Shown here piece after piece: positions 10,612 to 11,243 of a stretch of DNA of 64,000 bases; the stretch's first letter is position 1, and each line of letters starts with the position of its first letter. A model generated the notes under the pieces. The model saw nothing but the letters and a program-made list of their open reading frames with translations, had not been told where the DNA came from and made no database searches. Location: IMG/VR virus record IMGVR_UViG_3300021375_000006, one strand, 5' to 3'. The translations under genes and the position numbers were made by a program. Source of the DNA: a virus (Duplodnaviria; Caudoviricetes).

Positions 10612-10690
10612 GGTAGTCAAGGAGAGACTTGAACTCTCATGTAACCAATTACTCTTTCAACAAGGTATAAGCTTGAGGAGATACTTGACT
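10612..10690 (-). ncRNA. non-canonical D-armless tRNA-like RNA with a TAT (Ile) anticodon loop
   Basis: 7-bp acceptor AGTCAAG/CTTGACT, T arm GAGAG-TTCAAGT-CTCTC, anticodon arm CAAG-CTTATAC-CTTG. No D arm, but an extra GTAA-TTGG-TTAC hairpin before the T arm. Confidence 0.7.
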
Positions 10691-10695
10691 ATGTG

Positions 10696-10769
10696 CGGTC
10701 TGGACGGGATTCGAACCCGCGACCCCATGCGTGACAGGCATGTATTCTAACCAGCTGAACTACCAGACC
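10696..10769 (-). tRNA. tRNA-Asp(GTC)
   Basis: GGTCTGG...CATGC-CTGTCAC-GCATG...GGTTCGAATCC...CCAGACCG. Confidence 0.95.
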
Positions 10770-10784
10770 ATAATAATATGTTTA

Positions 10785-10859
10785 CTCCACTTGGACTCTC
10801 CTTTCGGTTGTAGGCGTGAGATTTGACGCCTCGTTGTTCGGCTTTCGCCTATCCAAGAG
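10785..10859 (-). ncRNA. compact four-way-junction structured RNA candidate
   Basis: Closing stem CTTGGA/TCCAAG around hairpins GGC-GAAA-GCC, AGGCGT-N8-ACGCCT and CC-GAAA-GG. Confidence 0.55.
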
Positions 10860-10860
10860 C

Positions 10861-10976
10861 GGGGGAGTAGGGGATTCGAACCCCTACTTCTGCCTAACCA
10901 ACTTAATCACATCGCGTAACTAGTATGATGCTTTCAGTCTTAAGGTTGGAGCGTCGTACCGTTTGACTAACTCCCC
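10861..10976 (-). ncRNA. tRNA-like RNA (116 nt) with an enlarged anticodon domain / possible 35-nt intron
   Basis: Acceptor GGGGAGT/ACTCCCC, D arm GTC-AAACGGTAC-GAC, T arm AGGGG-TTCGAAT-CCCCT. Stem CCAAC/GTTGG encloses 42 nt instead of 7. Confidence 0.7.
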
Positions 10977-10984
10977 ATATTTAG

Positions 10985-11058
10985 TGAACCAGACAGGATT
11001 CGAACCTGTGACCGTCTGCTTAGAAGGCAGATGCTCTATCCAGCTGAGCTACTGGTCC
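10985..11058 (-). tRNA. tRNA-Arg(TCT)
   Basis: GGACCAG...TCTGC-CTTCTAA-GCAGA...GGTTCGAATCC...CTGGTTCA. Confidence 0.95.
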
Positions 11059-11063
11059 ATAAG

Positions 11064-11154
11064 AAAGAGAGGCTTCGGGTCTTTCGGGGTTACTACTATA
11101 TAGAAGCTAACCCTTGCTTTTATCCATATAAGTGTAGCTTCACTACCTCTCTTT
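11064..11154 (-). ncRNA. structured intergenic RNA candidate between tRNA-Leu and tRNA-Arg
   Basis: 9-bp closing stem AAAGAGAGG/CCTCTCTTT and a 7-bp inner stem GAAGCTA/TAGCTTC. Confidence 0.45.
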
Positions 11155-11157
11155 TAG

Positions 11158-11243
11158 TACCGCTGGGCGGGCTCGAACCGCCACGGACATTACTGTCCAA
11201 GGGATTTTAAGTCCCTCGTGTCTACCAATTCCACCACAGCGGC
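11158..11243 (-). tRNA. tRNA-Leu(TAA)
   Basis: GCCGCTG...AGGGA-CTTAAAA-TCCCT, long variable arm GGACAG-TAA-TGTCC, T arm, A discriminator. Confidence 0.95.

Follow-up and report, generated by a model that had tools for sequence, protein, structure and literature searches.

A widespread phage RNA domain with a pseudoknotted four-way junction at the 3' end of tRNA look-alikes and other small RNAs

Theta ribozymes, which are minimal HDV-like ribozymes, adjoin the 3' ends of phage tRNAs and have been proposed to free the tRNAs there (Kienbeck et al. 2024, PMC10879173). The YrlA-type Y RNAs of bacteria and phages combine a tRNA-mimicking module with a second conserved module (Chen et al. 2014, PMC4201824; Rfam RF02553). 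Here we describe a further RNA of about 75–100 nt, undescribed, widespread and restricted to phages, of which one copy lies in the stretch of 64,000 nucleotides that we analysed (hereafter the window). Like the theta ribozymes, it is a small phage RNA domain whose first base, a G, directly follows a tRNA-shaped RNA, and it is closed by its P1 helix. Like YrlA, it joins a tRNA-like module to a second module, and the loci L291, L338 and L344 share the circularly permuted layout. What is new is a fold proven by covariation, a pseudoknot, a wider family, and 5' modules that are exchangeable and in some cases permuted.

The element and its tRNA array

The window is a fragment of a myovirus genome of about 34% G+C that encodes a tail sheath, a major head protein, a portal and a protease. 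The 75-base element lies inside a tRNA array on the minus strand. In the order of that strand, the array comprises tRNA-Leu(UAA) (11157-11243), tRNA-Arg(UCU) (10984-11058), a non-decoding tRNA look-alike of 116 nt (10861-10976), the domain, tRNA-Asp(GUC) (10695-10769), an odd tRNA-like sequence (10612-10690), and beyond it an ORF of 138 aa and then tRNA-Pro. The look-alike is the 5' module of the composite RNA. It scores 41.6 bits with the Rfam tRNA model and was not called by ARAGORN. Its acceptor, D and T arms are intact, and a folded insert of about 58 nt replaces the anticodon arm. Its last base, C10861, occupies the discriminator position N73. An RNase P cut at tRNA-Asp (10769) would leave the domain with a trailer of about 15 nt only. 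The nearest virus record (G001) lacks the region.

Two other parts of the array deserve mention. The spacer between tRNA-Leu and tRNA-Arg (11062-11155, minus strand) is structured over about 91 nt and closed by AGAGAGG/CCUCUCU; it is missing from the closest relatives (L001 and others), which have a spacer of 11 nt, and one contig from an RNA library skips it (joint 11061>11153). To judge by its appearance, this spacer is a small RNA module that was inserted here. The odd sequence at 10612-10690 (minus strand) has an acceptor stem, a T arm, an anticodon-type loop CUUAUAC (UAU) and an irregular D region. It was called neither by ARAGORN nor by Rfam, and it is conserved in L001-L007.

The minus strand of the element reads CUUGGA / UA / GGC[GAAA]GCC / GAACAACG / AGGCGU CAAAUCUC ACGCCU / ACAA / CC[GAAA]GG / AGAG / UCCAAG, exactly as given by the original prediction, which was made from the letters of the window. 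Positions 10785-10860 fold into four helices around an open junction, and the element alone reaches -25.1 kcal/mol (z = -2.86, single-sequence fold). It had been placed directly 3' of the tRNA-like element; the two do adjoin, with the start of the domain two bases past 10861. The invariant linker G-C that follows N73 (10859-10860) is part of the GC(U) that flanks the element 5' in 60 marine members; in the wider family, N73-G is followed by a P1 that starts with C. G10860 is unpaired, while C10859 pairs with G10788 and closes P1 across a mismatch of U10858 and U10789, an extension of the helix beyond the one first proposed.

P1 pairs CUUGGA (10852-10857) with UCCAAG (10790-10795) and covaries. 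It is followed by the linker J1/2, UA in the window (10850-10851) and (G)UA in its family form, before the G that opens P2; this linker is invariant in our alignments A1 and A4. All three pairs of the P2 hairpin GGC-GAAA-GCC (10840-10849) covary. The next linker, J2/3 (GAACAACG, 10832-10839), is invariant even in the 5'- and 3'-anchored scans that left it free. In the P3 hairpin (10812-10831) the helix is near-invariant and the loop varies in length, with variants such as CAGNAC, ...AUCC and expanded forms. This loop contains the strand CUC (10818-10820), which pairs with 10785-10787 and covaries across the family. J3/4 (ACAA, 10808-10811) is invariant in the marine members obtained from patterns that left it free. 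The pairs of the P4 hairpin CC-GAAA-GG (10800-10807) covary (ACC/GGU, GUC/GAC, GCC/GGU and longer stems). J4/1, AGAG in the window (10796-10799), has the family form RGAG, with AGAG in 61 and GGAG in 40 of the 106 distinct members. The 3' tail UGGAG (10785-10789) provides the mismatched U10789, the G10788 that closes P1 and the pseudoknot strand GAG (10785-10787). Immediately 3' of 10785 the sequences of the relatives diverge.

Two complementarities between invariant segments were also observed. The GUAG of J1/2 and CUAC (the last two bases of P3 with the first two of J3/4) are perfectly complementary and invariant in all members, and could make an alternative helix of 4 bp in competition with the base of P3. 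The CGAAC in J2/3 is complementary to the GUUCG of the T loop, and both are invariant.

Covariation and pseudoknot in the family

Marine relatives were collected by exact and degenerate pattern scans of IMG/VR and of metagenome contigs, each anchored on a different part of the element. A covariance model (R1), built from 20 sequences, gave 35 viral and 91 metagenome matches with scores of 72–109 bits. The core GAACAACG-AGGCGU...ACGCCU-ACAA was invariant in the marine members, also in the scans that left the core free. The remaining helices changed with compensation: P1 occurs as CUUGGA/UCCAAG, CUUAGA/UCUAAG and CUUAAA/UUUAAG, P2 as GGC/GCC, GGU/ACC and GGUUC/GAACU, and P4 as CC/GG, ACC/GGU, GUC/GAC and stems of 6 bp. 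Among the 64 distinct marine rows, 97.5% of the pair cells were standard and double changes occurred in 12 of the 18 pairs; pairing fell to 19–43% when the partner was slid by 1–3 columns. A tRNA look-alike lies directly upstream in every marine relative and is far more variable, its acceptor stem included. More than half of the distinct marine loci (59 of 101) have no canonical tRNA within 1.5 kb. Hence, look-alike and domain form an autonomous unit rather than a by-product of tRNA arrays.

A second scan was anchored on the centre of the element only (GAACAACGAGG...GCCUACAA). It gave at least 120 matches and revealed a wider family, with at least about 85 further members that score 24–72 bits with R1. 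Viral and metagenome contigs together supplied at least about 200 loci of the family, with more than 130 distinct sequences among them. P1, P2 and P4 of the wider family are unrelated in sequence to the marine ones and follow the same plan: (N)GC - P1 (7–8 bp) - GUA - P2 - GAACAACG - P3 - ACAA - P4 - RGAG - P1' - G.... In the 68 distinct rows of this set, 96.5% of the cells were paired. Double changes were counted in 261 cells, versus 67 in shuffles, and the covariation score reached 0.578, versus 0.164 in shuffles. Every pair of P1, P2 and P4 covaries, with up to six pair types, and all six P1 pairs change on both sides. The strand and the four-way junction of the original prediction hold, and the proof of the fold is comparative, from the pairing and covariation in both sets of relatives (97.5% of pair cells in the 64 marine rows, 96.5% in the 68 wider-family rows).

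P3 stays AGGCGU/ACGCCU in the wider family. The search pattern prescribed about half of it and a part of the linkers, so that their invariance is there partly a matter of ascertainment; they were not fixed in the marine subfamily. The two GAAA tetraloops had been stressed in the original prediction, an emphasis that the family does not bear out. Among the 106 distinct members that could be parsed, the loop is of the GNRA type in 28% of P2 and 59% of P4 hairpins. GAAA loops are therefore common caps and do not define the family.

The wider-family loci span 29–59% G+C and lie on contigs of 2 to 459 kb (among the matches listed). Four large phage records, of 212–459 kb, carry exactly one copy of the domain each. 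The only locus with two copies among the matches listed is L291 (3221-3470, minus strand), where two units of a permuted tRNA-like module and a domain stand in tandem. A possible distant stand-alone variant was found at L227 (1640-1723, minus strand; JACXTT010148817.1), with a score of 23.8 bits. It has GAACAACG, a shortened P3, ACAA, P4 and AGAG, with CGAUAGG/CCUAUCG as P1; a clear P2 is missing, and an intrinsic terminator lies behind the variant.

Once the members were sorted by the 3' end of their P3 loop, this end was found to pair with the 2–8 bases that follow P1. In the window, C10818 pairs with G10787, U10819 with A10786 and C10820 with G10785. The pairings found in the family include AC:GU (in loops CAGNAC), CC:GG, CUC:GAG (as in the window) and UCC:GGA, and among the longer ones AUCC with GGAU or GGGU, UGUCC with GGGCA, CUAGCC with GGCUAG, and AGACAUCC with GGGUGUUU. 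Over 66 distinct combinations of loop and tail, the mean contiguous helix was 3.09 bp, versus 1.86 ± 0.13 bp with shuffled partners (maximum 2.29 in 5000 shuffles) and 0.55–1.48 bp in slid registers. The second pair, which uses U-A, A-U and C-G, forms in 85% of the distinct combinations, versus 44% in shuffles (none of 2000 reached the observed value). This pseudoknot between the CUC of the P3 loop (10818-10820) and GAG (10785-10787) was not part of the original prediction. It sets 10785 as the 3' border of the domain, i.e., the point at which conservation among the relatives stops.

Several other pairings were considered and rejected. Pairing of AGCA in the P3 loop with a 5' UGCU, the GAG of J4/1 as general partner of the loop CUC, and an imitation of the acceptor 5' strand by the 3' tail GGAGU were all dropped for want of covariation. 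The same applies to the alternative CCGCU/AGUGG of the minimum free energy fold, which moreover fails where N73 is A. A reading of J4/1 and the tail as interdigitated T-loops, as in T-boxes, was discarded because the segments lie at opposite ends of P1.

The domain matched no family of Rfam 15 at the position of the element, at the gathering score or at E ≤ 10, in the window and in eight other members. Neither the marine nor the wider form gave a blastn match in 50,697 GenBank phage records, and the domain was not found in E. coli genomes. The pattern scan of species-representative genomes gave a single match (L136), which lacks the fold and is due to chance, and the only match of model R2 in 151 Pseudomonadota genomes (L374, 27.9 bits) lies in a coding region and is false. 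A full-text search of the literature with the core string and keywords found no description of the domain. The novelty first proposed for the element, which had not been recognised as a known riboswitch or ribozyme, thus stands with respect to Rfam 15 (E ≤ 10, window and eight other members), the 50,697 phage records and the literature searched. Two sets of matches were set aside: those of the 3'-anchored pattern at L138-L162 are mostly coding regions, with one ordinary tRNA, and none fits the model, while the transposase-like L170 group of the metagenome scan is a chance match.

A constant 3' module behind exchangeable 5' modules

In every member collected, the domain is the 3' module of a composite RNA. 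In the standard topology, the 3' strand of the acceptor stem is followed by N73, the invariant unpaired G and the P1 that starts with C, and, in 145 of the 168 distinct contexts, 28–38 nt separate the end of the T arm from the core. The tRNA-like module is permuted in L291 (both tandem units), L338 and L344, where a T arm, an acceptor hairpin and a D arm are closed by an anticodon-type stem. This is the layout of YrlA, and the YrlA model of Rfam scores 30.8 bits in L291 and 28.6 bits in L338, versus a gathering score of 69; these matches are confined to the upstream tRNA-like part and do not include the domain. Other 5' modules lack a T arm and have other folds (L272, L281, L345, L367 and others). 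The domain stays constant behind standard, permuted and other 5' folds, and is therefore the constant 3' part of RNAs whose 5' part is exchangeable.

The giant tRNA arrays that hold the domain and the permuted YrlA-like modules in L338 and L291 also encode full-length GOLLD RNAs (L338 1780-2200, 272 bits; L291 3961-4386, 250 bits; both on the minus strand). In the look-alike, the insert in the place of the anticodon loop ends in a hairpin with a palindromic hexamer in its loop (window 10905-10925; also L276, L285 and L288). The hexamers found are ACUAGU, GCUAGC, GAUAUC and UGAUCA. That they remain palindromic while the sequence changes suggests loop-loop dimerisation.

It had been suggested that the look-alike and the domain may form one transcript of about 190 nt. 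The junction of N73, G, C and P1 is invariant in all members of standard topology, which fits a single unit. Contigs from the RNA libraries of three runs bridge the junction of look-alike and domain in a relative without tRNA-Asp, and cover the ORF, the odd tRNA, the domain, the tRNA look-alike and tRNA-Arg. These contigs are assemblies that may include DNA, and they show presence and continuity and not RNA ends, strand or level. They agree with the single unit, but as evidence of presence only and not of one mature transcript.

Some units have a strong sigma-70-type promoter just upstream, e.g., TTGACA-16-CATAAT with an upstream TG in L276. No intrinsic terminator was found behind the domain in the units inspected. 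There is no common family of neighbouring proteins: the best one, a short ORF over the tRNA-like region, occurs at 33 of 103 marine loci, and the best in the wider family at 16 of 79 loci. The lack of a linked protein family, together with the span of 29–59% G+C, argues that the domain either functions by itself or has a partner that is widely conserved.

The TROVE (Ro60-like) domain had no match in 10 of the 12 records searched (11 of which carry the RNA domain), including a 100% complete record of 161 kb. Weak TROVE matches were found in ORFs of 547 and 583 aa (L375/L377, G005 C1 160123-160827; L376, G004 C1 105196-105402). Both ORFs belong to jumbo-phage records in which the domain also occurs, at a distance of more than 180 kb.

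Possible functions and relation to known RNAs

As judged from the alignments, P1, P2 and P4 vary freely with compensation, and P3 and the A-rich linkers are an essentially invariant core of about 30 bases. This core is more conserved than the adjacent tRNAs, across 29–59% G+C and without a linked protein, which points to catalysis or to recognition by a universal cellular machine. The explanation that we favour, tentatively, is that the domain serves as a constant module that folds by itself, by which the 3' end would be locked and which would be read by a putative partner conserved across many hosts. The pseudoknot would tuck the 3' end in, and so define and protect the end of a transcript that has no terminator. 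P3 and the A-rich linkers (G)UA, GAACAACG, ACAA and RGAG would offer an invariant surface to the partner, which may be a universal factor of the host or a protein that the phage encodes elsewhere. By analogy with the modular Y RNAs, the tRNA-like module may serve as a second handle, and both modules would stay joined in the mature RNA. An argument against a 3'-end lock is that a simple exonuclease block needs no set of about 30 invariant bases.

Small ribozymes just as typically combine invariant junction strands with a terminal pseudoknot. The main rival, possible if doubtful, is that the domain is a new small self-cleaving ribozyme. It would cut at its own 5' edge, between N73 and the invariant G, and the release of the look-alike, or of other cargo, would give that RNA a defined 3' end. 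The unpaired G directly after N73 sits at the place where theta and HDV-like ribozymes cleave. This G is invariant and at a fixed position, followed by the P1 that starts with C; the pseudoknot of 2–8 bp has the local topology of the P1.1 of HDV, and the junction nucleotides are invariant while the helices covary. That no protein partner was found, and that very different phages carry the domain, is as expected for self-contained ribozymes, and the theta ribozymes that abut phage tRNA 3' ends are a precedent (PMC10879173). Yet the ribozyme families of Rfam 15 gave no match even at E ≤ 10 (window and eight other members), and the P2 pseudoknot that defines the HDV fold is missing, as is the J4/2 connectivity. 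Moreover, the domain is never found behind the canonical tRNAs that flank it in arrays, and it does occur behind permuted modules and folds that have no N73. The RNA-library contigs bridge the putative cut site, which weighs little given that DNA carry-over or precursors could account for it. That the domain might represent a new class of ribozymes, a four-way junction locked by its pseudoknot and equipped with a minihelix like P1.1 of HDV, with which phages of many hosts would free tRNA mimics and small RNAs at a defined 3' end, seems to us unlikely.

Much less probable than cleavage by the domain itself is its origin as a degenerate tRNA descendant kept as a processing signal, with RNase P and RNase Z seeing the tandem as a dimeric tRNA precursor, as in T4. 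The cloverleaf layout, the P1 of 7–8 bp followed by UA-G as at tRNA positions 8–10, the purine after P2 as at position 26, the 4-nt linker in the place of the variable region and the tandem arrangement with tRNA-like genes inside tRNA arrays would all suit such a descent. However, the Rfam tRNA model gives no score at E ≤ 10, and the 8-nt J2/3 and the 4-nt J4/1 break the stacking of a tRNA. The domain has no T loop, no D loop and no CCA-like tail, the pseudoknot between loop and tail has no counterpart in tRNA, and conservation is far above that of the real tRNAs alongside.

We regard it as highly improbable that the domain is a Ro60/Rsr-binding module, i.e., that the composite is a phage Y RNA of YrlA type in which the protein-binding stem was replaced. 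The modular architecture, the weak YrlA scores over the upstream modules of L291 and L338 (30.8 and 28.6 bits) and the weak TROVE ORFs in two jumbo-phage records with the domain would fit this. Nevertheless, the scores are far under the gathering score of 69, leave the domain itself uncovered and have no equivalent in the window; 10 of 12 records had no TROVE match, the two TROVE ORFs are separated from the RNA by more than 180 kb, and the motif GNCGAAN0-1G fits by coincidence, only where P2 has a GAAA loop. Scarcely credible, finally, is a ligand-sensing, riboswitch-like aptamer that controls the composite RNA or downstream genes: the compact pseudoknotted junction and the invariant purine-rich core recall many aptamers, but there is no expression platform, no terminator, no consistent downstream gene (the next feature in the window is a tRNA 15 nt away) and no match to an Rfam riboswitch.

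Within the family of this domain, the phage "tRNA genes with odd anticodon arms" are exchangeable front halves of composite RNAs. The domain is thus a handle for finding tRNA mimics, for correcting the annotation of phage tRNAs and for asking what the mimics are used for.

Among known RNAs, the theta and HDV ribozymes share with the domain a short helix in which the 3' side of the P3 loop pairs with the bases directly after P1. This is P1.1 in the ribozymes; in the domain it has 2–8 bp and covaries. The P1 of the ribozymes starts at the G of the cleavage site, at the 5' edge. The domain has an invariant G after N73, which is unpaired, and its P1 starts at the next base, a C. The domain has no P2 pseudoknot, and so no nested double pseudoknot; its P2 is a local hairpin. 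Conservation stops directly behind the P1.1-like strand, and nothing remains there for the P2 of HDV or its J4/2 with the catalytic C. The P3 of the domain has 6 bp, versus about 3 in theta ribozymes, and long A-rich linkers as well as two additional hairpins set the domain apart. The RNAs to which it is joined are non-decoding tRNA mimics and other cargo, never the ordinary tRNAs alongside. The HDV-type models of Rfam had no match at E ≤ 10 in the window and eight members. Unlike the hairpin and twister-sister ribozymes, which likewise gave no Rfam match (E ≤ 10), the domain has uninterrupted arms, without internal loops that carry a cleavage site.

The domain shares with tRNA (RF00005) the helix order of the cloverleaf and a closing helix of 7–8 bp followed by UA-G, and the cloverleaf is a possible evolutionary origin. 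It differs from tRNA in lacking T, D and anticodon loops (the loops in the window are GAAA, CAAAUCUC and GAAA), in its long J2/3 and J4/1, and in its pseudoknot from loop to 3' tail; neither ARAGORN nor Rfam (E ≤ 10) called a tRNA at 10785-10860. Compared with YrlA (RF02553), which has no match in the window at E ≤ 10, the second module is a pseudoknotted four-way junction and not a Ro-binding stem with GNCGAAN0-1G. That motif was rejected as coincidental, occurring only where P2 is GNC-GAAA-G, and the domain has no rsr/TROVE gene nearby (within a few kb, on the same strand).

The rnaD (species 2) and rnaC (species 1) of T4 are a pair of stable non-tRNA RNAs right behind tRNA-Arg in the tRNA cluster of a myovirus; in the window, too, tRNA-Arg is followed by the look-alike and then the domain. 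In T4, however, the RNA that bears a T arm is the second of the pair, whereas in the window it is the first. Model R2 had no match in the T4 pair (L137 2909-3172; filters off, E ≤ 10), and kinship was rejected, as the two share no similarity of sequence or structure. Finally, GOLLD and ROOL are, like the domain, highly structured phage RNAs within tRNA arrays; they are 400–800 nt long and unrelated in sequence and fold, whereas the domain, of about 80 nt, is the 3' module of a composite RNA.
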